A stretch of DNA of 64,000 nucleotides from a virus, in the IMG/VR virus record IMGVR_UViG_3300027917_000039. One strand, written 5' to 3'. Every line of letters begins with the position of its first letter. Within the stretch, counting starts at the first letter, position 1. The notes under the pieces were generated by a model. That model was not told the DNA's origin, searched no databases, and saw only the letters and a program-made list of their open reading frames with translations. The position numbers and the translations under genes were made by a program. This document shows, one piece after another, positions 9,830 through 30,264 of the stretch.

Positions 9830-9936
9830 TAGGATCTCCAGTGTGCGTGTGTGTTTAGTTATCAGGAGTCAGCGGGTCTGCAAACACCGCCTCGCCGCAT
9901 TGCAGTACGACCGGGCTGACTTGCCCGCTCCCGAAG

Positions 9937-10008
9937 CTGTGGAGGCTGGACTCGAACCAGCAACAGTCCGGTTAACAGCCGGATACTCTACCATTGAGTT
10001 ACTCCACA
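9937..10008 (-). tRNA. tRNA-Asn (anticodon GTT)
   Basis: Hand-folded cloverleaf: acceptor TGTGGAG/CTCCACA, D-arm ACTC-AATGGTA-GAGT, anticodon arm TCCGG-CTGTTAA-CCGGA, T-arm GCTGG-TTCGAGT-CCAGC, discriminator G, U8 A14 G18G19 U33 A37 present. No encoded CCA. Confidence 0.85.
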
Positions 10009-10067
10009 GTAACCGAGGGGGTGGGAAATCAACCCAGCTTTATCTGACCTTGCATCAGCCTCGGTAA

Positions 10068-10135
10068 GCTGCCCGCCCGGAGTCGAACCGGCGTCCCCGC
10101 TAGGGGTAGGATTATTGCCTGTCACCCGCGAGCAG
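10068..10135 (-). other. degenerate tRNA-like element (good T-arm and acceptor, no canonical anticodon arm)
   Basis: GCCGG-TTCGACT-CCGGG T-arm consensus plus a 7-bp acceptor pairing CTGCTCG/CGGGCAG, but only about 38 nt between them. D and anticodon arms cannot both be formed. Confidence 0.25.
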
Positions 10136-10157
10136 CGTGTTGGGTTTTACCAACGCT

Positions 10158-10331
10158 TCATGATGTCACCTCATCTTCTGAGTCCCAGCGTTTCTTGATG
10201 TTGACAAGCCTCGTGACTTGAGACTCAGTTAGGTCGACCACTTTCATGTTGCCGATCAATTCGGTGGCGAGGTTCTCTGCTTCAAAGTCGCCTTCGACAA
10301 CTGCCGCGATCAAGATTTCATTGAGCCTCAT
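10158..10331 (-). CDS. hypothetical small protein
   Basis: Start at MRLNE with GAAAGGG 7 nt upstream. The GTG at 10346 lies inside the promoter -10. Confidence 0.4.
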   Translation of the reverse strand: MRLNEILIAAVVEGDFEAENLATELIGNMKVVDLTESQVTRLVNIKKRWDSEDEVTS

Positions 10332-10351
10332 CGTCAACCCTTTCACTATTA

Positions 10352-10380
10352 AGTCTACCCCACAACCAGGGTCAGGTCAA
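10352..10380 (-). promoter_or_regulatory. phage early promoter copy 2: TTGACC-N17-GGGTAGACT
   Basis: Minus-strand read CCTTGACC-TGACCCTGGTTGTGGGG-TAGACT-TAATAGTGAAAGGGTTGACG-ATG. Confidence 0.5.
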
Positions 10381-10390
10381 GGAAATTCTC

Positions 10391-10780
10391 TCAGATCAGT
10401 CGGATATTCCTCAGAATTTCCCCGATTTCCTCACGCACCCGCCCGACACGCGCTTCATGTGCTGTCAGCATTTCGAGCAGGACTTCCAGCTTCCGCTGGC
10501 TGAACTTCCGGTAGATTTCCGGCTTGCCTTCCTTGGTGTTCAGTAGCTCATCCAATCTGAGCAGGGCGGTGTTGACATCGCTCGCCTGCTTAGTCACGTC
10601 CGCGTGCCCGTCAGACATCAGGTCGATAACGGCTTTCAGGTTCTTTCGGTTCACTGAGTTCGGCACTTTTGGTCCCCTTTCAACATAGTGGTCGTCGCCA
10701 TGACCAGCGAGGCAGTTAAAGTCGTACTGGTAGTTTGCGCAGGTCTCACATGGACCTGAGCACGAACTGAACATCTTCAT
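10391..10780 (-). CDS. hypothetical protein with N-terminal Cys cluster
   Basis: CSGPCETCANYQYDFNC followed by a helical region. Confidence 0.45.
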   Translation of the reverse strand: MKMFSSCSGPCETCANYQYDFNCLAGHGDDHYVERGPKVPNSVNRKNLKAVIDLMSDGHADVTKQASDVNTALLRLDELLNTKEGKPEIYRKFSQRKLEVLLEMLTAHEARVGRVREEIGEILRNIRLI

Positions 10781-11046
10781 TCCAAGTGCTTCCCCAGGCA
10801 GCGGCGGACCAACTCCATCGCCCCGTCGTCCCGCCAGTGTTTCAATTTCACCGTCTTATGCGGCGGCTCCGGTCCGTTCTGGTCGGTCTTGATCCTGCTC
10901 ACGTAATTGCCGACGTTGCCGGTCTCCACCTTCTTCAAGCCGATCTCAATGGTTCCGATGACACGCTTGCAATCTTCCATGCCGTGCGGCACAAGTTCAA
11001 CAGTCACTCGCAACATCAGGCGGCGTCCTTTCCGTAGTTCTCCCAC
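10777..11046 (-). CDS. hypothetical protein
   Basis: 89-aa ORF, stop-start coupled. Confidence 0.4.
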   Translation of the reverse strand: MGELRKGRRLMLRVTVELVPHGMEDCKRVIGTIEIGLKKVETGNVGNYVSRIKTDQNGPEPPHKTVKLKHWRDDGAMELVRRCLGKHLE

Positions 11047-11636
11047 CAGAGGGGCTCCTTCTTGAAGTCTTCAATGTCCACGAAGTCGGTGATCCGGACC
11101 TGTTCCTTGCTGCTGTGCAGCACGTTCTTCCGGTTGCAAATCACGAACTCGCTGCACGTCGCCAGCCCGTTGTAGAAGTCAAACCCCTTCTGCGTGACGT
11201 AGTAGTGCGACTCAGGCTTGCCCTCCGGACGCCCAAGCAGCCCGAAGTGAACGAGGTAGCTGTAGTTCGTGGAGAACCCACGAGCACCCCGCTTGGGCGT
11301 CACCTTTGGGAAGTCGTCAGGGTACTTGAACTCGTGCTTGTGCTTGACCATTGTGAGTTGGCACAGGGAGATCAGAAGGATCACGCTCGCCGTCTCCAGC
11401 GTGTGTCTGTTGGAGCCCTCTGGACGGCGGGTGAGTGGGTCAAAGAACTTGTCGCGGGAACGGAGAACGACGTTTACGAATCGCAACATCTCTTGCACGT
11501 CGTTGCCAAGGTACTCCCACACGGTGTACTGTTTGCCTTCCTCTTTGATGCGGACGAGTTCCTTCGGGATTCCCGCCGTCACAAAGTCCGCGATGCTCAG
11601 CCGTTCCAAGATGTTCATGTTGCTGCCTTTCTGCAA
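11016..11636 (-). CDS. hypothetical protein
   Basis: 206-aa ORF. Upstream intergenic region has TTGACA-N16/17-CATACT and GAAAGG before the ATG. Confidence 0.45.
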   Translation of the reverse strand: MQKGSNMNILERLSIADFVTAGIPKELVRIKEEGKQYTVWEYLGNDVQEMLRFVNVVLRSRDKFFDPLTRRPEGSNRHTLETASVILLISLCQLTMVKHKHEFKYPDDFPKVTPKRGARGFSTNYSYLVHFGLLGRPEGKPESHYYVTQKGFDFYNGLATCSEFVICNRKNVLHSSKEQVRITDFVDIEDFKKEPLWWENYGKDAA

Positions 11637-11681
11637 ATCGAGTTTCGTTCTATCTCAAGTATGACACCAATCTCCACATTG

Positions 11682-11921
11682 TCAAACCATTTTCTCAATT
11701 TCGTGGCATTTCGATGATCCACGTTCAAATTCTCCAAACATTACTTCTACCGGATAACCCTCTTCCCTGGACAATTCCCACCAAACATCCAGACATTCCG
11801 GATGGCACTTGACAGTCATCAGTTCCCCGTCTTCCCAAGTCCCCTTCTCAATCCGTTCACCACACCACCAGCACCTGTGGTCCTTGCGGCATTTCTTGAT
11901 AGTAACGGTGCTCTCTTGCAT
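11682..11921 (-). CDS. small zinc-ribbon protein
   Basis: CRKDHRCWWCGER...VKCHPEC. Start at MQESTV overlaps the polymerase stop (TGATG). Confidence 0.45.
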   Translation of the reverse strand: MQESTVTIKKCRKDHRCWWCGERIEKGTWEDGELMTVKCHPECLDVWWELSREEGYPVEVMFGEFERGSSKCHEIEKMV

Positions 11922-14521
11922 CAGATCAAATCCTCCAGGGAAGACACGTCCGGGCACGGGTCCGGCTCTTCGTCAAGTTCTTCGAGTTCGCTGATGTCGA
12001 TTGGCTCAACGTACGGGGAGTCCTTGTCATCAGCGTTCCAGCCCTCGATGCCGTGCGGGCTGATCTTCACGTCTAGGTCAGAACCGCCGCCCTTCTTGCC
12101 CGCCCAATCCAACATGGACTTGACCCAATCCATTCCAATCAGCGGCACTTTGTCACGAAACGATTCAACTACCTCCACGACCACAGCGGTGACAGCGTCG
12201 ATCATCCACTTGGCGGTGACACTGAGCACTTCGTCGTGGACATTCATCGGGGCGACCAACCACTCGTGGACACCAGCAGGCTGCAAGTCCCATATCTTCC
12301 TCTGCAACTGCTTCGTGATCATTGCTCCAGGGGATTGGATGAGATGGTTGTTGGCAGCCCGGATGGTTGAGGCTTGGATTTGGAAGGCAGCACCGTAAAG
12401 GGCAGAAGAGACCGCTCCGGCGGGAGTCTGCGTTCGATCGCGTCGCACAACCTCAAAGTCGAGACGACGCCAAGGCTTTGGCACGTTGGTAGCCAGATCA
12501 TACAGTGCCTTGGCTATCCGGTTTTCGAGTGTGAAATACCGGCGGAAGCCCAGGAAGGTCTCGACATACTCGGCGGGTTCCTTGTAGGTAATGTGTCCGG
12601 TCCCGACTTCCCCGTGCTGCTTGAGAGCAGAGAAGTCTTCGGCGATCTTCTCGCGGGTTTCCTTGATGCCGGGGTACTCGTTCTGGAAATCGTCGAACGC
12701 CTTCTCAGCGATCTTCTTGGGGATGGACAACTTCTTGTTGATCGTGTTGGCGTCGCCTCCGTACAGCGTGGCAAACACAGCCTGCTTGCCACGAGTGTAC
12801 ATATCAATGTCGCCGCCGTCGGCGAATCCCTTCGACGCCTTGATCTGGTCGCGTGTCTTCTCCGGGTAAATCTTCTCAGCCATCAGGGTGTGGATCGAGA
12901 TGCCCGCCAGCAAGTTCTCGTGCAGCTTCTTGTCACCGAACACCGCGTCGGCGATCGTCACCTCGAACCCGTCGAAGTCCCCGCCGCATAGTTCCATGTC
13001 ACCCCACTTGAGCGGGAACGACCCACGCACTTCCTTGCTGCCTTTGATCCCTTGAGCGTTCAGTCCCTCACCACCCGCCATTCTGCTGGACAGAGTCCCG
13101 ATGACTTTGAACGCCGCGTGGAACCTGCCCGCGATGATGAGTTTCTCATACAGTTCAACTTCCTTTGCAGCAGCCTTGCATTTAAGGATTTCGTCTGCCC
13201 GTCTGGAAGCAAGAGTCGGACCTTCGGGTAGGAATCCTCTTCCTTCGCAACGGGGGCACTGTCCCGTCGTCTCTTCGCCAGTACCCAAGCAACGTATACA
13301 CATCTCGCCGCCAAGGTCGTGATCAAAATCGTCACTCCCGCTGTCCACAACGAATTCTGCACGTATCTTCTCCAGGTTGGCTTTCTTGGTTGACTTGTCG
13401 ATGAGCGTGGCTTCTGACTCATCCATCACTTCACGAATGTATGCCTTCACCTGAGAAGGCTTGTTGATGTTTACTGGGGATGCCTCAAGCACCGACTTGG
13501 ATTCTCGCAGAAGCCCGGTGACTTTCTCAGTATCAACGACAAATCCATGCCAGCGTACGGCTGCCACCATGCAGGAGAGCACCGAGTCGTTATCATCGGC
13601 TTCAGGGAATCCGAAGTATTCGTCGAGCAGTCGTGTATATGTAACGTCGTCTCGTGCGTATCGTCGCGCCTCTTCATTCGTTCTCCAATGCTCAATGTCG
13701 TAGTGAATCAGGGCTGGCCACGCAAAGCCCTTGAGTTTGTGGTTCTTGTCATAGACTTTCCAATCTTGCGCCCTCGTGGCGACGGCGAGAGCGAACGGAG
13801 CAAAGCCCAACTCAGCCAGCTTCATCCCTTCGCGCGTAGGGTACACGTCCTTGAACGAGTGGAACTCAGGGTCCAATCCAAGGCAGTTCTCGGCAAGATA
13901 CTTCAACCCGCGAGCGGGTTTGAACTTCAGAACAACGTCCTTGAAGTTCGGATCGACTTGGTCTTCCTTGCCCTTCTTGATTCGATCGTAGACACCCCAC
14001 TTCGGGGCGTTTGGGTTCTTCCGCCCTGCGAACAGGATGCCGTCGAACTCGATCAGTCCTTCCAGGTGCCGCTGCAATGGTGCTGCCAGAGCGGTCGGAA
14101 CCTTGGTGACGCGGACATCGTGCCGCGACATCAGGGTCTGGAACTGCCCCTTCCGGCTGTGCATCATGAGGCACATCACGCTCTTCGGCTTCACGCAAGG
14201 ACCGTCACGCGCATCCCTCTCGGCTTCTGCCAGTTGACAGGGTGACAGGGTGGACGGGACGACGTTGCCGTGCCGCTCCAGTATGACTCGCCACATCGTG
14301 TAAATCTTGCAGATGTGAAACCAGTCATACGTCGCGTTGAAGAACACGCACGTCCCGGTGCAGAAACGCTCGATCAGGTCGAGCGTCTCTTGCACGGGGA
14401 CATCCCAGAGATTGTGTAGGTGCTCTTCCCCATCTTCGTACGCCCACTGGATCAGGGTAGCCAACCCGTGGTATCCGCACGTCTCGGTGTCGATGTAGAA
14501 AGCGCTCTTACGAAATCTCAA
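11921..14521 (-). CDS. family A DNA polymerase with N-terminal 3'-5' exonuclease and an inserted DnaJ-type zinc finger
   Basis: Exo YIDTETCG. Pol motif A DFDGFEVTI, motif B RGKQAVFATLYGG, motif C VHDEVLSV. Insertion CIRCLGTGEETTGQCPRCEGRG. Confidence 0.85.
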   Translation of the reverse strand: MRFRKSAFYIDTETCGYHGLATLIQWAYEDGEEHLHNLWDVPVQETLDLIERFCTGTCVFFNATYDWFHICKIYTMWRVILERHGNVVPSTLSPCQLAEAERDARDGPCVKPKSVMCLMMHSRKGQFQTLMSRHDVRVTKVPTALAAPLQRHLEGLIEFDGILFAGRKNPNAPKWGVYDRIKKGKEDQVDPNFKDVVLKFKPARGLKYLAENCLGLDPEFHSFKDVYPTREGMKLAELGFAPFALAVATRAQDWKVYDKNHKLKGFAWPALIHYDIEHWRTNEEARRYARDDVTYTRLLDEYFGFPEADDNDSVLSCMVAAVRWHGFVVDTEKVTGLLRESKSVLEASPVNINKPSQVKAYIREVMDESEATLIDKSTKKANLEKIRAEFVVDSGSDDFDHDLGGEMCIRCLGTGEETTGQCPRCEGRGFLPEGPTLASRRADEILKCKAAAKEVELYEKLIIAGRFHAAFKVIGTLSSRMAGGEGLNAQGIKGSKEVRGSFPLKWGDMELCGGDFDGFEVTIADAVFGDKKLHENLLAGISIHTLMAEKIYPEKTRDQIKASKGFADGGDIDMYTRGKQAVFATLYGGDANTINKKLSIPKKIAEKAFDDFQNEYPGIKETREKIAEDFSALKQHGEVGTGHITYKEPAEYVETFLGFRRYFTLENRIAKALYDLATNVPKPWRRLDFEVVRRDRTQTPAGAVSSALYGAAFQIQASTIRAANNHLIQSPGAMITKQLQRKIWDLQPAGVHEWLVAPMNVHDEVLSVTAKWMIDAVTAVVVEVVESFRDKVPLIGMDWVKSMLDWAGKKGGGSDLDVKISPHGIEGWNADDKDSPYVEPIDISELEELDEEPDPCPDVSSLEDLI

Positions 14522-17505: not shown

Positions 17506-18774
17506 CTAGATAGAAATGTCGTCCATGTCAACGAGCCGATAACGTCTCGGACCCTTCAGTTCGTAGTCACAGCGTAGCTTCACAGGAAGCCGCCATGTGA
17601 TGCCATACTTCTTGTTGACACCGTGAATGAGTTGGGACGGCTCAGTGAACCCGCCCAGCGAATTGTACGAGTACGCATCGCTTGCTGGCCACGCTCCGTT
17701 GATGAGCATTTCACCGTTCATCTCTGTTGTGCTGCCAGGGCGATGGAAGTGACCGCAGCAGTAATACCGCACGGGCACGCCCTGCCTGACATTCTCCAGC
17801 GCCATCATTCGGTGACGCCGCTTCTCCAGTCCGTACCAGGGAATGCCCAGGCTGGACCGAACATCATCGCCGTGGAAGATGTGGAAACCCACGCCGTCGA
17901 TGTCTACGTTGCAAGAGAAGGCGTTGGGGATGCAGAAGTTGATGTTGGGGATGTCTCTGCAATACATCCGAGCCGTCGTGGCAATCAGGTAGTCCCAGTT
18001 GTCGTGGGCACCGTGGTAATCCTTCTTGTTGCTCCGGCGACCGTGGTTGCCCGGCACGCAGACCACATTGATCTGTTCAAAGTACGGGGCAAGATCGCGG
18101 AACATCAGGGCTTGCAACTGCCCGATCGCGTGGCAGTTCTTGAAGCAGTTGCGGAAGTAGGACCGCTGTGCTGCCCCGTGAATCTCACCGCTCGTGTGGT
18201 CGCCGTAGGACAGCACGGTGAGTGAGGGGAACCGGAACTGCGGAGCCAGCGTCTGCTGGGTCCACTTGAGCGTCACGTCGATCAGCCGCTCGGCACGCGC
18301 CATCGCGATGGGGAAGTTGTACATCTCCAACCCACCAGTATCATCGTGCGTGATTACTTGATCGAAGTGACCGTCGGACAGGTGCATGACAAGGTGCTCG
18401 GACATCGTGTCGTCGCCTGGGACGAAGTTCTTGCGAGCGGCTGGCAAAGCTGGAATCGGTTTGATTCGCTCTTCCATCTCATCTTCGATCGCCTTGAACA
18501 AGCCGTGCGTCTTCGCTGCTTGCTGCAACTGACGCTTGGCTAGGTTCCGCTCTTCGCGAAGATGCGCGACTTCGGCTTGCAGCGAGAAGATTTGTCGGTC
18601 TTCATCGCTCACCTCGCACGGGGCTTTCACGTCCCGATGGACCCGCCCACACGCGATGTCGCTGATAACAGAGCGGCTGACTCCAAACTTCTCGCCGATC
18701 TGTTTCTGTGTCAATTCCTTTCGAGCGAGCGCGTCCTTGATGTGCCCGACTTGATCCTTTGCCAGCTTGGTCAT
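17506..18774 (-). CDS. HTH domain fused to calcineurin-like metallophosphoesterase
   Basis: N-terminal HTH LTQKQIGEKFGVSRSVISDIACGR, a coiled-coil linker, then phosphoesterase motifs HLSDGHFD, GDH, GNHGRR, HIFHGDD, GHFH. Confidence 0.6.
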   Translation of the reverse strand: MTKLAKDQVGHIKDALARKELTQKQIGEKFGVSRSVISDIACGRVHRDVKAPCEVSDEDRQIFSLQAEVAHLREERNLAKRQLQQAAKTHGLFKAIEDEMEERIKPIPALPAARKNFVPGDDTMSEHLVMHLSDGHFDQVITHDDTGGLEMYNFPIAMARAERLIDVTLKWTQQTLAPQFRFPSLTVLSYGDHTSGEIHGAAQRSYFRNCFKNCHAIGQLQALMFRDLAPYFEQINVVCVPGNHGRRSNKKDYHGAHDNWDYLIATTARMYCRDIPNINFCIPNAFSCNVDIDGVGFHIFHGDDVRSSLGIPWYGLEKRRHRMMALENVRQGVPVRYYCCGHFHRPGSTTEMNGEMLINGAWPASDAYSYNSLGGFTEPSQLIHGVNKKYGITWRLPVKLRCDYELKGPRRYRLVDMDDISI

Positions 18775-20646
18775 TTAGTCCTCTCCAATGCTCACGGTGT
18801 TGTAGAATGGATGGTTCTCGATGATATAGTCGATAGCATCCTTGAAGTACGTGCCCTCCAGCGTGAAGAGCCTTTCCTTGAGATTGATGTCGGCGAGGTG
18901 TGCTCTCTGCCGTTTCAACTCATCAGGGTTCGTAATCAACTCGACCGACTTGGCAATCAATGCCTGCGGGTCTTCAAAGTTGTTGTACGACATATCAACG
19001 CGGTCGTTGAGGTACATTCCCGCGCGATTGTAGAAGCGATCACCCACCAGCGTCAGGAATGGAATGCCCATCCACAGGGACTCCACTAGGACGTTGTAGC
19101 AACCGAACGGGAATGAGTTGAGAGCAAAGTCATGCTTCTCAGCCTCCCGCATGTAGTCGACATACTCCCACTGCGAATGAACGTACGCATTGGGAAGCAG
19201 GCGGGTCACTTCTCGAATGAACGGAGGCAACGCAGCGTAGCGGTTCAGTCCGGGCGACCCGAAGAGATGAAACTCGTGGGTCGTTTCGGGGTTGACTTGC
19301 AACGCACGCTTGTTGATCTCAGCCAACATGGTGAGCAGCGTGTGGTTGTACTTGTCCGGTCCCCAGACACAGTTGATCCGGACGACGCCGTCGTCAACGT
19401 AGTTGTGCTGTCGCTCGACACTTGGCCACGCAGGCTCTTGTGCCAAGCCGGGGATGAGCACCCGTGTCTCTGAGTAGGCGGCATCGGCATCCTTCTCCAC
19501 CTGTCCGCAGATGAAGTAGTCAATCTCGTTGCCGTCACCCGTCGTGTCTGGGTGCCCGTATCCCACGACTTGTATCGGAGCCATGCGAAAGTTCGACATC
19601 CAGATCGACTCGTCCGACATTCCGATGTCGGGGAAGTAGACCAGTTGGTAGTCGTTCTTCAGCACTTCGTCTGGAATCCGCAACTGCCCTTCACGGGTGA
19701 AGTAGGCGTGGTGAACTTCATCGAAGTAATCTGTCACCATCGTTGACGGCACCAAGTCTGGCGGGTTTGTCCAGATCAGGGTCAACTTGTAGTGCTCGCG
19801 AAGCTGTTCGAGCAACGGACCCTGCGACTTGTACACCGCGTGGTTGCGATGCCACCGCTCGGTGACGATCGCGATCGACTTCGGGTTGGGGTTATTCTCG
19901 AACGGCGGTGCAGTGCCCTTGGATTTGATCCCCTTGTTGATGATGCTCTTTACTCGCCGGACGGCGTTCTGATTGTGGTACGTGCATCCAAAGTACAGAC
20001 CGGACAGGCTCTGATGCGGCGGGACAAACCGCTCGTCCATCAGTTCCAAGTGCCGATAGAAATTCTTCTGGATGTTGAACGTCGGTGACGACAGACCGAG
20101 CATGTAGCTCATGTACCAGAGCGAAGCGAGAGCGGGATCGCAGTCGAACAGTTTCTTCTGGTCGATTTGAATCTCGCAACGCGGGTTGAGCAGTGACATC
20201 ATCTTGCCGACGTTGTTCTCGATGCCAAGCGAGGCGTCGAGTGCGGCATCGGTAGTCCGCATCGAACTGGACGCGAAGATGCTCTGTAAGACGTGCCCCA
20301 ACTGGATCAACTGAATTGCCGATTTTCCAACCGGGTAGAAATCTACGCGCGAGACAGCCATCGAATACGTGAAGCAAAAGTCATTCAGCTTCACGATCGC
20401 AGAGTTGCCGAATCGCATGTAGTGGTGCATCTCGAAGTAATGCAAGAAGTGAACGAAGTCATCCCACAGAGTGACATCGAGGTCCGCGATCTTGCGCATC
20501 GCCTTCCTGACATCGAGGGTCGGGATGTCTTGCTGCGGGTCTTTTGGCCACGCAACACAACACCCGTCGACCTTCTTGGACTTCACTACCTGCCGCTTGC
20601 GGCGGTTACGAGCTAACTCTTTCTCACGCTTCTTCGTTCTTGCCAA
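18775..20646 (-). CDS. GT41-family (OGT-like) glycosyltransferase
   Basis: RMAPIQVVGYGHPDTTGDGNEIDYFICGQVE...YSETRVLIP aligns with the OGT catalytic-region signature RPAPIQ..LGYPGTSG..MDYIITD...YSEKL. Has a basic N-terminal tail. Confidence 0.6.
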   Translation of the reverse strand: MARTKKREKELARNRRKRQVVKSKKVDGCCVAWPKDPQQDIPTLDVRKAMRKIADLDVTLWDDFVHFLHYFEMHHYMRFGNSAIVKLNDFCFTYSMAVSRVDFYPVGKSAIQLIQLGHVLQSIFASSSMRTTDAALDASLGIENNVGKMMSLLNPRCEIQIDQKKLFDCDPALASLWYMSYMLGLSSPTFNIQKNFYRHLELMDERFVPPHQSLSGLYFGCTYHNQNAVRRVKSIINKGIKSKGTAPPFENNPNPKSIAIVTERWHRNHAVYKSQGPLLEQLREHYKLTLIWTNPPDLVPSTMVTDYFDEVHHAYFTREGQLRIPDEVLKNDYQLVYFPDIGMSDESIWMSNFRMAPIQVVGYGHPDTTGDGNEIDYFICGQVEKDADAAYSETRVLIPGLAQEPAWPSVERQHNYVDDGVVRINCVWGPDKYNHTLLTMLAEINKRALQVNPETTHEFHLFGSPGLNRYAALPPFIREVTRLLPNAYVHSQWEYVDYMREAEKHDFALNSFPFGCYNVLVESLWMGIPFLTLVGDRFYNRAGMYLNDRVDMSYNNFEDPQALIAKSVELITNPDELKRQRAHLADINLKERLFTLEGTYFKDAIDYIIENHPFYNTVSIGED

Positions 20647-21808
20647 GAGGCACCTCCACGAGTTTGCCGAACTCGAATTTCAAGAGACCTTTGCATTCAA
20701 TCCCCAGCTTGATGATTTCGTCTCGGATGTCGAGCGATCGCCAGGACGTGGTGCATATGATATAGTCAACGGGGAATTTCTTCAACGCTGTCGGAGAGAC
20801 CATCGGAATCTTCGTGCCGGGCACGCAGAATCCCCATTTCTCTTCGTGGCTGTCAACCACGAGAGTGGTATCCGGCAGCTTGAACTTGTTGATGAACATG
20901 GCGGACTTTCCACCGCCGCCCCACAGCGCGACCCTGTCGGTCGTGTTCACCAACCAGCTACGCACTTCGTCGATCTTGGCTTGAGCCCGCTTGTACTTGA
21001 ACAGGATTTGATCAACCGTCAAACCCTTGGTCCGCTTGGGCTCCAGCTTCGCCATCGCGACGATCACTTCACCACCATACGTGGTGGCTGCGTGAGAGAA
21101 CTCAATCCCGCACGCGCGGAACAGCTTCATCATGCTGAGCACAGTGAAGTGTTGTGGGTGCTCGTACGTCCAGTCTTCGATGCGGCATTTCTTCAATGCC
21201 TCTTGACAGCACGGGACTTCGATGAGCAGGATTGTGTCTTGGGCTCGCTTCTCAGCCATCCGGACAATCGGCTCGATGAACTCGCGCGGATTCTCCATGT
21301 GCTCCAGAAGGTGCCGCATGATGATCACCAACTTACCGCCGTCCAGCGGGATGTGCTGCTTCGGGTCGAAGTGCTCGCGGTAGTATTGGATGCCCAACTC
21401 TTCCGCTCGCTCGACTGCCTCGCACGGGTCGATCGCGATCTTGATCGCGTCGGTGTTGATCCGGTTGAGGAACTCGCAGTCGCCCGCACCGACTTCGATG
21501 ATCAATTCAACGTCTTCGATTTCTTCGACTTGCTTGACCGTTACCTCAACGTGCCTCTGCCAGCCGCTCCCACTATTGTACATGCGACAGCCAGCGGCTG
21601 CGTACGATACGTGGTTCGGATTGAAGTCGATGTTGTGGACGTGCCCGCAGTTTCGGCAGATCGCCAATCGGATTCGGTGGCGTTCCAACGATGCAGACTG
21701 CAACGGGTCGCGCTGCAATGCCACAAGAGACATCGGCTGGCTGCCCATGTCGAACAACACTTCTTGGTCTGTCGATTGACAGGCAGGGCAACATTGGATA
21801 TAACTCAT
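20624..21808 (-). CDS. SAM-dependent C-methyltransferase, TcaB9/TylCIII-like (Zn-ribbon + class I MTase + C-terminal domain)
   Basis: N-terminal CPAC...CRNC zinc ribbon, motif I LIIEVGAGDCEFL, about 390 aa with a three-domain architecture typical of sugar C-methyltransferases. Confidence 0.55.
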   Translation of the reverse strand: MSYIQCCPACQSTDQEVLFDMGSQPMSLVALQRDPLQSASLERHRIRLAICRNCGHVHNIDFNPNHVSYAAAGCRMYNSGSGWQRHVEVTVKQVEEIEDVELIIEVGAGDCEFLNRINTDAIKIAIDPCEAVERAEELGIQYYREHFDPKQHIPLDGGKLVIIMRHLLEHMENPREFIEPIVRMAEKRAQDTILLIEVPCCQEALKKCRIEDWTYEHPQHFTVLSMMKLFRACGIEFSHAATTYGGEVIVAMAKLEPKRTKGLTVDQILFKYKRAQAKIDEVRSWLVNTTDRVALWGGGGKSAMFINKFKLPDTTLVVDSHEEKWGFCVPGTKIPMVSPTALKKFPVDYIICTTSWRSLDIRDEIIKLGIECKGLLKFEFGKLVEVPLGKNEEA

Positions 21809-21969: not shown

Positions 21970-22342
21970 TTTCCAATTCTCCAAATAATGGGATGACGTA
22001 TACGCCGTAGTCTTCGTGATCACACCACTCTTTGATGTCGATCTCATCTTCCGGACCATGCACCAACAGCTTAGGCAACTTCAAACCATCCAAGGCTGAC
22101 ACCAGCCTGCGAACGTAAAAGAAGCCAAGCGACTTCTCATTCAGCTTGACATCGACAAGTTCACCGGCTTCGGTCGCCAGCACCTGGACTTCGATCGCTT
22201 CGATTCCGTACTCCCGATCCGCCTTCACGGTCAGGTTTTCCAGAATCCACTGAATGCCTTCGTTTGCCGGACACGTCCCGACAGTGTACAAGTCGAGACC
22301 TTCGGGGACCGACAACACACCAACCACTCGCGCGTCACTCAT
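21959..22342 (-). CDS. hypothetical protein
   Basis: Starts MSDARVVGV and overlaps the SNF2 gene stop. Confidence 0.4.
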   Translation of the reverse strand: MSDARVVGVLSVPEGLDLYTVGTCPANEGIQWILENLTVKADREYGIEAIEVQVLATEAGELVDVKLNEKSLGFFYVRRLVSALDGLKLPKLLVHGPEDEIDIKEWCDHEDYGVYVIPLFGELENAT

Positions 22343-24257
22343 CGCACATCTCCTGAAATTCACCAAGCGTCATTTGTTCAAGCCGACGGTTGTCACGCAA
22401 CACGCCGAGAACCTTACGGTCAGTACCAAGATGGAACAGGTCGACAATCGTCGCTCCCTTGTTCTCATCCATTCCCGGTCGGTGGATTCGGTCTTCAGCT
22501 TGCGAGCGAGACTCAGGCATGAAATCGTTCGAGTAGAACACCGCCATGCGAGCCTCAGTCAAGGTCAGTCCCATTCCTCCAGACGCCGGGTGCGCTACAA
22601 ACGCCACCCGCTCTTTCGTCATATCTGCCCAGTAGTCAAGGGGCTTGCACTGCTTCGCAGTGATCTTTGTGCCGTCGGCTGGCATCACTTTCCAGCCGCG
22701 ACCGTCAACCTTCACCACGTCCCAATGCTGCTTGTGGCAGAGGCTGATGATTCTGTCTACCGATCCCTGGAAGCCAGCGAAGATCACGAGACGCCCCTGG
22801 TCTTCGTTCTCTTCCAGCAGATCGCGTATAGCCTGATCCTTCGGCGTGTTGATCTGTTTCGTTTCCCGAACCATGTTCGGAACTTCACCCACACCGTCAC
22901 AATAACTGCACGGTCCGAGCCGCTTCTCGTAATGGTCCAGGTCATCTTGAGCGTCTACGTCGACCTTCTCACCATCGAAGTACCAGTCTTCCTTTTGTCC
23001 TTTTCCCTTGCAGACGGGGCACGAGATGGTGGGTTTCTTCTCGTCCTGCTTCTCGCGATACTGGAACCCGTCGCTCAGTTCACGCAGCCACGTCAATCCT
23101 TGAATCGCGGATATGGCGGATTTGGCCAGCGCTTTAGCCACTCGTTTAAGCGTGGATGTGGGTTCAAGTTCGACGACTCGATAGTTCTTGTCCGGTATGT
23201 CGAGGCAGTCTTTCTTCTTGAGGGTGACGACCAAACCTTCGAGTCGATCGTGAAGGAAGGCGACCTCGTTCTTTGAGGGTACGAAGTCGTGGTTTCCTTC
23301 GCCTCCGCCGAACAGAATAGCGTCTTCATCCATGACATGATTCGCATGATCGGCGTACTCACCGCATATATCACATTTGTTCTCGTCATCTCTCCACGTC
23401 TTTCGTTTCCAGAACTCTCCGGCATCGGTCATCTGCTTCTCGAAGATGGCGAGCCGGAACTCAAATGCCTTGTCGCTTCCTTCCTTGATGAAGCCTGGGT
23501 ATGCGATCTCACACTGTGCCCACCAGTCGACGGGCGATTTGGGCGAGGGCGTGCCGGACATGAGAATCACGTATCCATCCCAGCCATGCTCCCTCCGGAT
23601 CGAATCCGCCAGATGGGCAGCCGCGCGGGTCCGCTTGGCGTTCCACGTCTTGAGCCGGGACGACTCGTCGAAGATCACACCAACGGGCGCAGGTCGTCCC
23701 TTCTCCCACTTCTCGATCTCGATCCTCAGACGGTCGTACGTCATGAGGTTGGGCATTACCTTCAAGCCCCATTTGACAAACTCCCGTTCAACTGCGGCGA
23801 GACCTGACTTGGGGGCAACCCACCACCAGTCAGTGACGCCAGACTTTTCCATGAGTTCGATGGCTGCCAGGGTCTTACCGACGCCCATTTCAGCAGCCCA
23901 GATTTGGTAGTGGTAGGTGAGCCCTTGGTCGGCGAGCATCTTCTGGTGGTCGAACAGCGGGCGGGTGTAGCCGAAGTTTCTCAGCGGCTGCTCCCAATTC
24001 TCGTAGGGGTTGCCGCCCTGCATGTAGTCAAGCTGGAAGTTGTTCCGGCAGCAGTCTTCGACCGACCATATCTTTCGGTTGTCATCAGGTATGAAGCCGT
24101 GCCAGCGGGAGCCTCGCATCGCCTTGATCTCACCCTTCAACGCGAACGGTGACTTCAGGAAGTAGATGCGACTGCCGTCACGCTCTATCGTGGCGGGAAC
24201 CTTGAGCAAGGTTCCTTTCTTTGTCTCTGTGATCAGTTTGATTTCTTCAATCGTCAT
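22335..24257 (-). CDS. SNF2/Rad54-family ATPase (helicase-like) with an inserted DnaJ-type zinc finger
   Basis: Walker A AAEMGVGKT, DExx IFDESSRL, SGTP, helicase C GGMGLTLTEARMAVF...QAEDRIHRPGM. Insertions CDICGE...H..H and CPVCKGKG...CSYCDGVG. Confidence 0.8.
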   Translation of the reverse strand: MTIEEIKLITETKKGTLLKVPATIERDGSRIYFLKSPFALKGEIKAMRGSRWHGFIPDDNRKIWSVEDCCRNNFQLDYMQGGNPYENWEQPLRNFGYTRPLFDHQKMLADQGLTYHYQIWAAEMGVGKTLAAIELMEKSGVTDWWWVAPKSGLAAVEREFVKWGLKVMPNLMTYDRLRIEIEKWEKGRPAPVGVIFDESSRLKTWNAKRTRAAAHLADSIRREHGWDGYVILMSGTPSPKSPVDWWAQCEIAYPGFIKEGSDKAFEFRLAIFEKQMTDAGEFWKRKTWRDDENKCDICGEYADHANHVMDEDAILFGGGEGNHDFVPSKNEVAFLHDRLEGLVVTLKKKDCLDIPDKNYRVVELEPTSTLKRVAKALAKSAISAIQGLTWLRELSDGFQYREKQDEKKPTISCPVCKGKGQKEDWYFDGEKVDVDAQDDLDHYEKRLGPCSYCDGVGEVPNMVRETKQINTPKDQAIRDLLEENEDQGRLVIFAGFQGSVDRIISLCHKQHWDVVKVDGRGWKVMPADGTKITAKQCKPLDYWADMTKERVAFVAHPASGGMGLTLTEARMAVFYSNDFMPESRSQAEDRIHRPGMDENKGATIVDLFHLGTDRKVLGVLRDNRRLEQMTLGEFQEMCDE

Positions 24258-27513: not shown

Positions 27514-30264
27514 ATGCAACGCAACCCTTCTGTTACGTCTGCGTTCCAGACGTACTTTGAGAACGTCCTCAAACAGAACCACAACAATCCGGCGCTTATA
27601 TCCAGGTGGGGCGCCGAACCCGCCCGCTTCGAGACACAGATCATGTGCAAGAAGATGGGCACGCCGATCCCAGATTCACAGAAGTGGACCTGCGATGGCG
27701 AGACGTTCGGACCACAACGCTGGCCATACGACTCTGACACTGAGCCCAACTACAGCGACCCACCCATCCAGTACAACATCGGTGAGAGACTCCTGGCGAT
27801 CGGAACAAGCTGGTGGGATTGGAAGAACAAGCGATCCATCGGGCTAGGCTTCGACTTCGACTCGCTCATCGACCACGATGAGGGCGTCGGTGTCGATCAG
27901 TCTACCATCGCCAAGTTGGACAGACTGGACTTGCCGTGGGTGGAGGTGATCCGCTCGACGCGGGGCAACGGACGACACATCTATATCTGGTTCGATCCAG
28001 ACAACGCCCCGATCGCAAACAACCATCTTGAGCACGCCGCGATCGCTCGCTCATTCCTCCCGCTGCTGGCGACCCACTCAGGACTTGACATCGACACGAG
28101 CGTCGACTGCAAGGGTCTGATCATGTGGATTCACCATGTGAACGCGACGAAGGAAAACCGTGGCTACGAACTCGTCAAACCAGCAACGCAAATTCTGACT
28201 GCCGATCATGTTCCTCCGAACTGGAAGGATCATCTCGAAGTCGTCTCCGGCAGCAGAACCAAAGTGCGCGTCCAAGGATGGACGCCCAATGGTACAACAT
28301 CGGGTGATGAACTCGATGAAATGACCCAGGCGTACTCTCGTACCGAACTGGACGAAGTTCACCTGAAGATTCTGGAAGAACTGGAAGGTACGGGGCACAC
28401 GTCGGTGTGGGTCCACGACCACCATCTGTGGCAAGGTCATACCGGAGCATTGAAGCAGGTGTATGACGATTTCGCCGAACGCGGCACGCCGCTGCGCGGG
28501 CTGTTCGACACGAACTCATCAGATACTGACCCTGGCAAGCCCAACTGCTTCGCGCGACCCAAGCCCGGAGGTGCTTGGGACGTGTATCGTTTCGGTGAAG
28601 GCACGGCAGAGCACCCTCTGTGGGATCAGCAAGGCAAGTGGACCCACATCGGATTCAACACCCAACCCACACTGAAACAGGTATGCTTGGCGAGCGGAGG
28701 CTATGAAGGACCGGACCAACGAAAAGGATTCCTGTTCGACTCAAAGGATGACTTCCTGGCTGCCTTGGAGTTGTTGGGCTCGAAGGTGAAGCTGCCCAAG
28801 AAGGCAGACGGCAGGGAGTTGTCGCTGAGAATGATCGACGGGAGGATCGTGGCGACGGTCGAGAAGAAACGCGGGGATGAGAAAGAAGACTTCCCGCGAT
28901 GGGTGAAGGGCTCCGGCGTCTGGGAGCGACTCATCGACGACGCTGATGAGACTGCTGATACGGAAATGGAGGAAGAGACTCTCTGGTCCGAACTGGACGG
29001 GAAGTTCCGAGCCCTGCGGGTTGCGGGTGTGTGCGGTGGGCAATTCCACTCGTGGGTCATCTACGACAACACTGAGTCGTGGACCACCCACCCTCGCGAG
29101 AATATCAAATCGTATCTCGCCTCCATTGGCTACAAGCAGGCAGATGGGCTGCTTGGAGGCGCCATCTACAAATGCTGGACCCTCGTGAATGAACCGTTTG
29201 GACCTGAGTACCCTGGAGGACGTATGTGGAATCGTGATGCCCCGCAGTTTGTTTACCCACCCGTCGATTTGAAGGAAGGCGAAGAACCGAAACACCCGAC
29301 ATGGAACAGATTGCTTGAGCACTGCGGTGTCGAACTGAACGAATACATCCCAGAGTTGAAATGGTGCAAAGACTGGGGCATCACCACTGGCGGCGATTAC
29401 CTGCTCGCGTGGATTGCCTGCATGTTTCAGAACCCTTGGTGCAAGCTGCCGTACCTCTTCATGTACGGTCCGCAGAACAGCGGGAAGTCATCGTTCCATG
29501 AGGCTATCGGCTTCTTGCTGACAAAGGGAGTGGAGAAAGCCGACCGGGCGTTGACATCGAAGCAAGGCTACAACGGCGAACTGGAGGGAGCGATCCTGGC
29601 AGTTGTCGATGAAGTTGACATCACGAAGGCAGGGTCGGAAGTCTACAACAAGCTGAAGGAATGGGTGACGGCGGGGACGATCTCGATACACGCCAAGTAC
29701 AAGCAAGTTGTGGACATGCCCTCTACTCTGCACTTCGTACAGATGTCCAACGACCGCCGCAGCTTGCCAGTGTTCCCAGGCGACACGCGGATCACGGCGA
29801 TGAACGTGCCGTTCCTTGAAGCCGAGATTCCCCGTGATGAGTTCCATCGCAGGCTCAAGGAAGAGGCGTCTCACTTCATGCGGTCGGTAGTGGACTACCA
29901 TATGCCGCCGCCGATCGGACGCCTCGCGTTACCGATCATCGAGACGCAGGGCAAGATCGACGCCGCTGACGCGAACACTGACGATCTGGAATTGTTCCTT
30001 GAAGAGAAGTGCTTCCCGGTTCCGGGGGCGTTTATCAAGATCACCGACTTCATGGAGAAGCTGCACGCCTACTTGCCAGAGCATCTTATCTCAGATTACC
30101 CCAGGCGGGTGGTGGAGCCAAGACTGAAGGAACGCTACGTTGTTGGAATGGGATCAGGAAAGAACAACCAAGTATTGATCGGAAACCTATCATTTAACCC
30201 TAACGCGAAGCCCAGCACACCGTACACAAGAGAGGGTGCGAAGGTACGAAAGGAAGAACTATGA
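27514..30264 (+). CDS. bifunctional AEP primase-polymerase / D5-like SF3 helicase
   Basis: AEP motifs GLGFDFDS (DxD) and TRGNGRHIYIWF (sGxGxH). SF3 Walker A YLFMYGPQNSGKSSF and Walker B LAVVDEVD. Confidence 0.8.
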   Translation: MQRNPSVTSAFQTYFENVLKQNHNNPALISRWGAEPARFETQIMCKKMGTPIPDSQKWTCDGETFGPQRWPYDSDTEPNYSDPPIQYNIGERLLAIGTSWWDWKNKRSIGLGFDFDSLIDHDEGVGVDQSTIAKLDRLDLPWVEVIRSTRGNGRHIYIWFDPDNAPIANNHLEHAAIARSFLPLLATHSGLDIDTSVDCKGLIMWIHHVNATKENRGYELVKPATQILTADHVPPNWKDHLEVVSGSRTKVRVQGWTPNGTTSGDELDEMTQAYSRTELDEVHLKILEELEGTGHTSVWVHDHHLWQGHTGALKQVYDDFAERGTPLRGLFDTNSSDTDPGKPNCFARPKPGGAWDVYRFGEGTAEHPLWDQQGKWTHIGFNTQPTLKQVCLASGGYEGPDQRKGFLFDSKDDFLAALELLGSKVKLPKKADGRELSLRMIDGRIVATVEKKRGDEKEDFPRWVKGSGVWERLIDDADETADTEMEEETLWSELDGKFRALRVAGVCGGQFHSWVIYDNTESWTTHPRENIKSYLASIGYKQADGLLGGAIYKCWTLVNEPFGPEYPGGRMWNRDAPQFVYPPVDLKEGEEPKHPTWNRLLEHCGVELNEYIPELKWCKDWGITTGGDYLLAWIACMFQNPWCKLPYLFMYGPQNSGKSSFHEAIGFLLTKGVEKADRALTSKQGYNGELEGAILAVVDEVDITKAGSEVYNKLKEWVTAGTISIHAKYKQVVDMPSTLHFVQMSNDRRSLPVFPGDTRITAMNVPFLEAEIPRDEFHRRLKEEASHFMRSVVDYHMPPPIGRLALPIIETQGKIDAADANTDDLELFLEEKCFPVPGAFIKITDFMEKLHAYLPEHLISDYPRRVVEPRLKERYVVGMGSGKNNQVLIGNLSFNPNAKPSTPYTREGAKVRKEEL

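Follow-up and report, generated by a model that had tools for sequence, protein, structure and literature searches.

Polymerases of the marine HMO-2011-type podophages (HMO-2011, and the RCA phages CRP-1 to CRP-3) contain a partial DnaJ central domain that holds a pair of CXXCXGXG motifs, a feature that serves as a signature of the group (PMC6918029, PMC9038755, citing Kang et al. 2013). The DnaJ-like segment has been placed between the exonuclease and polymerase domains, and the papers examined report no function for it (PMC6918029, PMC9038755). In the GenBank record of the SAR116 phage HMO-2011, the polymerase is annotated with PF01612, PF00684 (DnaJ_CXXCXGXG) and PF00476. We analyzed a feature of this type in the family A DNA polymerase encoded by the IMG/VR virus record IMGVR_UViG_3300027917_000039, a stretch of 64,000 nucleotides referred to here as the window. 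The feature type is already published for HMO-2011-type phages; the window case belongs to a different clade and occupies a different loop. Thumb-tip insertions give some family A polymerases processivity or contacts within the replisome, and the thioredoxin-binding domain (TBD) of phage T7 polymerase is the paradigm. The reading that we favor, with somewhat better than even confidence, is that the window polymerase carries a Zn(Cys)4 knob at the tip of its thumb that serves as a protein-docking site.

The window polymerase has both a 3'-5' exonuclease and a polymerase domain, and its assignment to family A is secure: residues 460-794 match Pfam DNA_pol_A (PF00476) at 60.5 bits, above the 34.3-bit gathering cutoff (E=1.8e-16), motifs A, B and C are present, and the predicted fold is that of PolI. 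The protein also matches PHROG 17 (DNA polymerase). A full-length AlphaFold2 (AF2) model built with 58 homologs has a predicted local distance difference test score (pLDDT) of 87.3 and a predicted template modeling score (pTM) of 0.84, and Foldseek matches it best, among PDB structures, to Thermus phage G20c PolI, Bst and Klenow, with E-values of about 1e-14 at 13-15% identity. Exonuclease residues D11, E13, D66, Y288 and D292 are conserved. Polymerase residues D515 (in DFDGFEV), K579, F583 and Y587 (in RGKQAVFATLYGG) and H762-D763-E764 are invariant in an alignment of 58 homologs that are 56-87% identical to the window protein. Among cultured phages of the collection searched, tblastn found no close relative; the best homologs there share only about 25-28% identity, over the polymerase core, and none exceeds 28%.

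The element under study is a pair of zinc knuckles, CIRCLGTG and CPRCEGRG (Table 1). An earlier note on this DNA, made from the letters alone, had located the pair at 13235-13300 in a family A polymerase, with five residues between the repeats. Translation of the open reading frame (ORF) places the pair exactly there and gives a spacer of six residues, EETTGQ. Chance cysteine and glycine motifs with no structural meaning would be suggested by the shortness of the motif and by nothing else, and we consider this explanation practically negligible. The polymerase has 16 cysteines and 65 glycines, and when its sequence was shuffled 200,000 times a single CxxCxGxG arose at a frequency of 0.0015 and a pair within 40 residues never did. 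Six-frame translation of the whole window yields only five CxxCxGxG motifs, four of which lie in the polymerase and in an SNF2-like ATPase. None of the four cysteines (C408, C411, C422 and C425) varies among the 58 aligned homologs, and significant profile and fold matches (below) likewise stand against chance. The conservation data refute a fortuitous origin of the knuckle pair.

Conservation within the module extends beyond the presumptive ligands. The non-ligand residues E406, R424, G429 and G434 are also invariant in the 58 sequences and G413 and G415 are at least 90% conserved, with an inter-knuckle spacer that ranges from 0 to 14 residues across the clade. In the 120 best homolog clusters (54-100% identity), a CxxC or CxxCxGxG motif is found at the equivalent position in every one. 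When a profile of the 40-residue module was searched against all PDB sequences, the only matches with E<0.01 were Anti-TRAP (3lcz, E=2.3e-4; 2bx9, E=5.4e-4) and the cysteine-rich domain of E. coli DnaJ (1exk, E=1.6e-3). The Anti-TRAP profile alignment is gapless over both knuckles and has an identical six-residue spacer. Structure prediction, which the earlier note had proposed as a check, agrees with the profile search: modeled on its own in AF2 (pLDDT 81), the module has Anti-TRAP as its best Foldseek match (probability 0.95-0.99, TM-score 0.64-0.66, root mean square deviation 2.7 Å). In the full AF2 model, the module region has a pLDDT of 85-92 and is arranged as strand, knuckle, hairpin, knuckle and strand. 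The proposal that the two repeats make up one DnaJ-type zinc centre is thus borne out by four invariant cysteines and by profile and AF2 matches to Anti-TRAP and then to DnaJ, and the module is most likely a single Zn(Cys)4 ribbon of the Anti-TRAP/DnaJ cysteine-rich type. We infer that the metal is zinc from the motif, its conservation and the predicted fold.

A profile search of 1.84 billion representatives retrieved 447 members of the wider polymerase family below 1e-30, of which 146 were aligned. The segment matching residues 389-437 of the window protein, 49 residues long there, is shorter than 20 residues (typically 4-8) and free of cysteine in 75 of the 146 representatives, contains 2-6 CxxC motifs in 51, and is ambiguous in the remaining 20. 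The polymerases E. coli PolI, T7 gp5 and phage Molly have no such module, and the view that the segment is foreign to canonical PolA holds. Maribacter phage Molly had itself been considered as a module carrier, as its tblastn alignment spans the module, and was rejected on finding that its polymerase lacks CxxC. By alignment, the module is a true insertion of about 43 residues.

The insertion had been thought to lie between the exonuclease and polymerase domains. Pfam matching after in-silico deletion, together with alignments, indicates that it interrupts the polymerase domain instead. When residues 392-434 are removed in silico, the DNA_pol_A match starts at residue 342 (profile 23) rather than at residue 460 (profile 98), and the score rises from 60.5 to 72.8 bits; zinc-less relatives have an unbroken DNA_pol_A match from profile position 12-20. 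Residues 551-925 of E. coli PolI correspond to profile positions 3-380, and the insertion point therefore falls near PolI residues 618-624. In local MAFFT alignment, H1 (NINKPSQVKAYI) lies on E. coli FNLSSTKQLQTI and H2 (KSTKKANLEKI) on E. coli PSTSEEVLEEL; with T7 included, the window H1 and H2 helices lie on FNLSSTKQLQTILFE and PSTSEEVLEEL of E. coli and on FNPSSRDHIQKKL and VVDDEVLEGV of T7. The helix at 437-464 aligns to E. coli VILEYRGLAKLKSTY...GRVH (helix I), with window GRFH equivalent to GRVH at PolI residues 653-656. Aligned by hhalign, the clade profile matches E. coli PolI from query 463-807 to template 651-925 (probability 97.6), starting only at residue 463, and its match to T7 gp5 is not significant (probability 3.3). 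Since hhalign alone did not cover the thumb, the thumb was mapped by in-silico deletion with Pfam and by local MAFFT alignment. In the Klenow, Taq and T7 structures the thumb tip is built from H1 and H2, and the module is therefore predicted to project from the H2-to-I junction at the tip. Judged by these comparisons, the insertion interrupts the thumb of the polymerase domain at its tip, where H2 gives way to helix I. For the window clade, this corrects the published inter-domain placement: the segment is within the thumb.

The charge of the insertion bears on what the thumb-tip module might touch. The insert (residues 390-433) has a net charge of -7, and it is negative in 56 of the 58 clade members and in 43 of the 51 module-positive family representatives. 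A conserved acidic linker of the DFDxEL type precedes it. Together, the acidic insert and its linker argue against direct contact with the DNA backbone, and they weigh against an explanation in which the ribbon lengthens the thumb around the primer-template duplex and raises intrinsic processivity without any partner. The same can be said of the knuckles of other subclades, which are acidic too (e.g. CDDCMGMGCEKC), and of the Zn(Cys)4 site, which contributes further negative charge. A DNA-contacting extension would fit the position of the module, because the thumb-tip region contacts the duplex product in Klenow, Taq and T7 complexes. It would also fit the invariance of R424, the near-constant arginine or lysine at position 410 in the clade, and the Lys-rich hairpin of the analogous HMO-2011 module. 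On balance we regard it as quite unlikely.

A different clue comes from the variable element of the module, the inter-knuckle loop. In three IMG/VR contigs (L057, L060 and L085) and in protein P0438, a complete J domain lies between the knuckles, with Pfam DnaJ (PF00226) scores of 46-49 bits against a 27.8-bit cutoff (E~1e-12) and an HPD motif. These J-bearing polymerases are about 45% identical to the window polymerase; that of L057 (IMGVR_UViG_3300035696_002928) lies at approximately nt 10004-12760. Their nearest relatives have a minimal CGRCEGKPGCARCGGTG instead, and J-bearing forms are rare, at 3 of 80 IMG/VR loci. A search of the literature for phage DNA polymerases that contain a J domain gave nothing relevant, and no description of any DNA polymerase with one built in. 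The nested J domain, which marks one sublineage, and the variable loop suggest that the tip of the hairpin is exposed to solvent.

J domains bind Hsp70, and the zinc centres of DnaJ take part in the DnaK cycle and act as thiol oxidoreductases. The module could on these grounds be linked to chaperones, coupling the polymerase to host Hsp70/DnaK, or act as a thiol or zinc redox switch that tunes thumb function. At least four relatives have a J domain with HPD nested in the equivalent module, and papers on HMO-2011-type polymerases speculate on a DnaJ link. Yet the window protein has no J domain, Hsp70 is engaged by the J domain and not by the zinc finger, and the J-bearing forms are as scarce as described above. 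We judge this alternative very improbable. Stated in its most specific form, namely that the thumb-tip module is a chaperone-coupling device of Planctomycetota phage polymerases that recruits or cooperates with host Hsp70 (DnaK) in polymerase loading or replisome remodeling, the idea is a long shot. If it were true, the device would take its explicit form in the relatives whose two knuckles enclose an HPD-containing J domain, and these would be the first DNA polymerases to have a J domain of their own, much as the SV40 large T antigen helicase has one.

Anti-TRAP and the zinc-finger region of DnaJ are both protein-binding modules. It is the acidic charge, the variable and sometimes J-bearing hairpin and the protein-binding relatives that lead us to favor a docking knob over DNA contact. 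Protein docking, which the earlier note had raised for the replisome, is plausible. In the mechanism that we propose, the 66 bases encode two CxxCxGxG knuckles that would fold into a single Zn(Cys)4 ribbon, the core of the ~43-residue thumb-tip insertion. The zinc-stapled module would form a solvent-exposed knob on the thumb and dock a second protein, which may be a partner in the replisome or come from the host, for instance a chaperone. Docking may couple the polymerase to its partners or raise its processivity. T7 polymerase uses its TBD comparably, at the same end of the thumb, and the polarity would be reversed in the window protein, where the knob is acidic. We predict no catalytic role for the module and consider direct binding to the DNA backbone improbable.

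As read from its alignment, the wider polymerase family has two hot spots at which putative zinc modules are gained, lost and multiplied. The subclade to which the window polymerase belongs is module-positive throughout. A rough neighbor-joining (NJ) tree requires at least 24 changes of state at the thumb-tip site (site 1), compared with 39.8 when the tips are shuffled; the tree is approximate and the count may be inflated. A second insertion hot spot lies directly after motif A, between ..LLxG and KIHxLF (window residues ~539-541, nt ~12899-12907). Cys-rich inserts of 20-70 residues with 2-6 CxxC motifs occupy it in 32 of the 146 representatives, including P0123, P0125, P0131, P0138, P0152, P0157, P0184 and P0201, with at least 16 state changes on the NJ tree; the window protein has no insert there. 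At the thumb tip itself, several relatives that are 63-73% identical to the window protein (P0020, P0022, P0025, P0050, P0055, P0059 and others) have an N-terminal expansion to 4-6 CxxC(xGxG) motifs, up to 108 residues long, which would make 2-3 putative zinc centres. For P0128, a zinc-less relative with a 5-residue loop, no IMG/VR relative was found, and the contig of P0127, another zinc-less relative, is 4 kb long.

Such lability would suit a near-neutral structural staple, in which the ribbon rigidifies a surface loop without a specific ligand and mini-modules drift through permissive loops. The patchy distribution at both sites, the range in copy number from 2 to 6 CxxC, and the retention of conserved polymerase motifs by members without cysteine at the site all speak for a staple. 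Against it are the Cys4 module in all 120 best homolog clusters and the invariance of its four cysteines in 58 sequences, the equal invariance of the non-ligand residues E406, R424, G429 and G434, and the display of a predicted J domain on the module in some relatives. We consider the staple unlikely, although it deserves some weight.

Several observations count against the favored reading of a zinc-bound docking knob. The lability of the module implies that the polymerase can work without it, and it could be a near-neutral decoration. Foldseek E-values for the model of the 40-residue module are only 0.03-0.1, because the domain is small. Pfam matches of the window protein are sub-threshold, at 17.3 bits for Anti-TRAP (PF15777; cutoff 32 bits) and 12.6 bits for DnaJ_CXXCXGXG (PF00684; cutoff 32.7 bits, E=0.17), and neither family reaches its threshold in the window protein or in any of nine relatives, HMO-2011 (29 bits) among them. 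The thumb-tip assignment comes from sequence and Pfam co-linearity and from the textbook Klenow, Taq and T7 structures. Zinc is deduced from the motif, and iron, as in rubredoxin, is possible; the docking partner is hypothetical.

Table 1. Features of the window discussed in the text, with positions in the 64,000-nucleotide stretch (aa, amino acid residues).
Feature	Position	Strand	Basis or remark
Gene for family A DNA polymerase (866 aa), start codon TTG	11921..14521	minus	ORF, Pfam, PHROG, AF2
Helices H1 (NINKPSQVKAYIRE, helical at aa 355-363) and H2 (KSTKKANLEKIRAEF, aa 380-389) of the thumb tip	13355..13459	minus	directly upstream of insertion; AF2
Whole insertion, aa 392-434: acidic linker and predicted zinc ribbon, ~43 aa	13220..13348	minus	family alignment, in-silico deletion
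Putative zinc knuckle 1, CIRCLGTG, aa 408-415 (C408, C411)	13277..13300	minus	
Distal hairpin/spacer EETTGQ, aa 416-421	13259..13276	minus	0-14 aa long in clade; site of nested J domain in relatives
Putative zinc knuckle 2, CPRCEGRG, aa 422-429 (C422, R424, C425, G429 invariant)	13235..13258	minus	
Long thumb helix I, aa 437-464, running into GRFH	13130..13213	minus	AF2, hhalign, alignment
Acidic C-terminal tail of polymerase, aa 836-866, net charge -12	11924..12016	minus	...ELEELDEEPDPCPDVSSLEDLI
Single tRNA-Asn (GTT) gene	9936-10008	minus	
SNF2-like ATPase, 640 aa, second CxxCxGxG pair between two RecA-like lobes	22335..24257	minus	Pfam Helicase_C and SNF2-rel_dom, PHROG 62
SNF2 knuckle CPVCKGKG, aa 413	22998-23021	minus	
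SNF2 knuckle CSYCDGVG, aa 450	22887-22910	minus	

The earlier note had also seen the motif pair recur in the SNF2-like ATPase of the same phage and had taken this to suggest a shared acquired module. The second pair is real, and the shared acquired module is unsupported. The SNF2 knuckles are 29 residues apart, compared with six in the polymerase. In 103 SNF2 homologs, C413, C416, C450 and C453 are invariant, the inter-knuckle insert varies from 17 to 45 residues, and the GxG is not strictly kept. When profiles of the two modules were compared with hhalign, only 13 columns around knuckle 2 aligned (probability 88.6), and the global alignment reached a probability of 32. Among 57 related loci with both genes, the SNF2 Cys4 is present in all 57 and the full polymerase module is missing in four; at locus L075 the SNF2 Cys4 accompanies a polymerase with an 8-residue Cys-free loop. 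The polymerase and SNF2 modules are of the same knuckle class, and a shared origin is unsupported beyond this generic signature. The SNF2-like ATPase also has an invariant CDIC (C295 and C298, residues 295-298) followed by His residues, which may form a second metal site. Inteins with HNH domains (PF14890, PF13392) occur in several SNF2 homologs, among them P0287, P0299, P0303 and P0308 (754-1076 residues).

The window is from a tailed phage: it encodes a primase (27514-30264) and an exonuclease (17506-18774), a large terminase and portal, a tape measure protein and a ParB-like protein. The ORF at 18775-20646 is counted, with the primase, the exonuclease and the SNF2-like ATPase, among the replication proteins. 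Relatives of the polymerase at 44-55% identity (L086-L102) lie inside 0.2-4.2-Mb contigs of Planctomycetota metagenome-assembled genomes (Thermoguttaceae, Pirellulales, Planctomycetaceae and Aureliella), and a few in this set are binned as Chloroflexi or Cloacimonadota. One 4.2-Mb Thermoguttaceae chromosome (OY762224.2) contains three copies of the polymerase. The occurrence of relatives in these contigs suggests prophages and a planctomycete host range; since the Planctomycetota contigs are large, the polymerase family probably belongs to temperate Planctomycetota phages.

Two further Cys-rich ORFs on the minus strand may encode additional zinc ribbons. The first, of 91 residues (11682-11957; C..CWWC...CHPEC), overlaps the 3' end of the polymerase gene by 37 nt and continues downstream. 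The second, of 394 residues (20624-21808), has an N-terminal CPAC...CRNC pair. The polymerase itself ends in a conserved, strongly acidic tail, and the final 30 residues have a net charge between -6 and -15 in all 58 clade polymerases. Acidic tails are interaction motifs in T7 replication proteins such as gp4 and gp2.5, which the C-terminus of the window polymerase recalls.

Comparison with described systems places the window module in a landscape of related but distinct elements. HMO-2011-type polymerases are alike in being phage family A enzymes with exonuclease and polymerase domains and one CxxCxGxG pair near the thumb tip, and the window protein shares the two CXXCXGXG motifs of the partial DnaJ domain by which the group is recognized (PMC9038755). 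Relatedness within the group is set at ≥25% identity over ≥80% of the length (PMC9038755). The window protein aligns with HMO-2011 by BLASTP at 23% identity over a local 279 columns and lies outside this limit, and its insertion point differs. HMO-2011 is absent among the 40 tblastn matches listed and the named organism groups (50 matching records). The phages differ as well: HMO-2011 is a ~55-kb podovirus, whereas the phage of the window has a tape measure protein and is related to ~100-kb contigs and to Planctomycetota prophages. Classification of the window polymerase as HMO-2011-type was rejected on the local identity, the different loop and the tape measure protein.

The loop occupied in HMO-2011 can be placed from motif order and from its Pfam DNA_pol_A match, which resumes at profile 53. 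The module (CATCNGTG, 17 residues, CPACHGDG) has a Lys-rich spacer and would lie between H1 (INLNSPEQL) and H2 (FSTSKTNLELLE), within a much larger insertion. The window module, in contrast, comes after H2, at about profile 72-77, with a six-residue spacer and an acidic character. In-silico removal of the 36-residue HMO-2011 knuckle segment, or of the T7 TBD, did not extend the Pfam match in either protein; the position in HMO-2011 is based on motif order and profile start for this reason.

Anti-TRAP (RtpA) of Bacillus (PDB 2bx9, 3lcz, 3ld0) is the best profile and fold match, with one Zn(Cys)4, two DnaJ-like knuckles and a six-residue hairpin. Unlike the window ribbon, which is internal to an 866-residue polymerase and is followed by thumb helix I, Anti-TRAP is a free-standing 53-residue protein. 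Its C-terminal helix drives assembly into trimers and dodecamers, and the protein binds TRAP; the window ribbon has no such oligomerization helix. The window module therefore resembles the Anti-TRAP family (PF15777) in knuckles and fold, and departs from it in being embedded and in scoring below the gathering threshold. The DnaJ/Hsp40 cysteine-rich domain (PF00684, 1exk) shares the CxxCxGxG signature and a strand after each knuckle, but has four repeats and two zinc centres where the window has two repeats and one predicted centre. With 4-6 repeats, P0020, P0137 and other relatives with expanded modules resemble the four-repeat DnaJ domain. The window protein has neither the four repeats nor the gathering score of PF00684, and it has no J domain, G/F region or C-terminal domains of DnaJ.

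The TBD of T7 gene 5 offers the functional analogy that we propose, that of a docking platform for processivity or replisome partners, and it too is a lineage-specific thumb-tip insertion in a phage family A polymerase. It is inserted between thumb helices H and H1 and binds thioredoxin, and its basic loops bind acidic tails. The TBD differs from the window module in its length of 76 residues, in having no Cys4, and in its insertion before H1, with the Pfam match picking up again at residue 333 (profile 29); the window module follows H2 and is acidic. If the module confers partner-dependent processivity, it could serve polymerase engineering. The by-products of most interest are all found in relatives: a J domain nested in the module, a second hot spot, and expansions in copy number. 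Recurrent gain, loss, multiplication and fitting with a J domain suggest that the thumb tip is a general plug-in site for partner recruitment. Two phage polymerase clades that are unrelated to each other would each carry a zinc-stapled knob at this end of the thumb, in different loops. Overall, three lineages of phage polymerase appear from their sequences to decorate three adjacent thumb-tip loops: T7 before H1, HMO-2011 between H1 and H2, and the window polymerase after H2.

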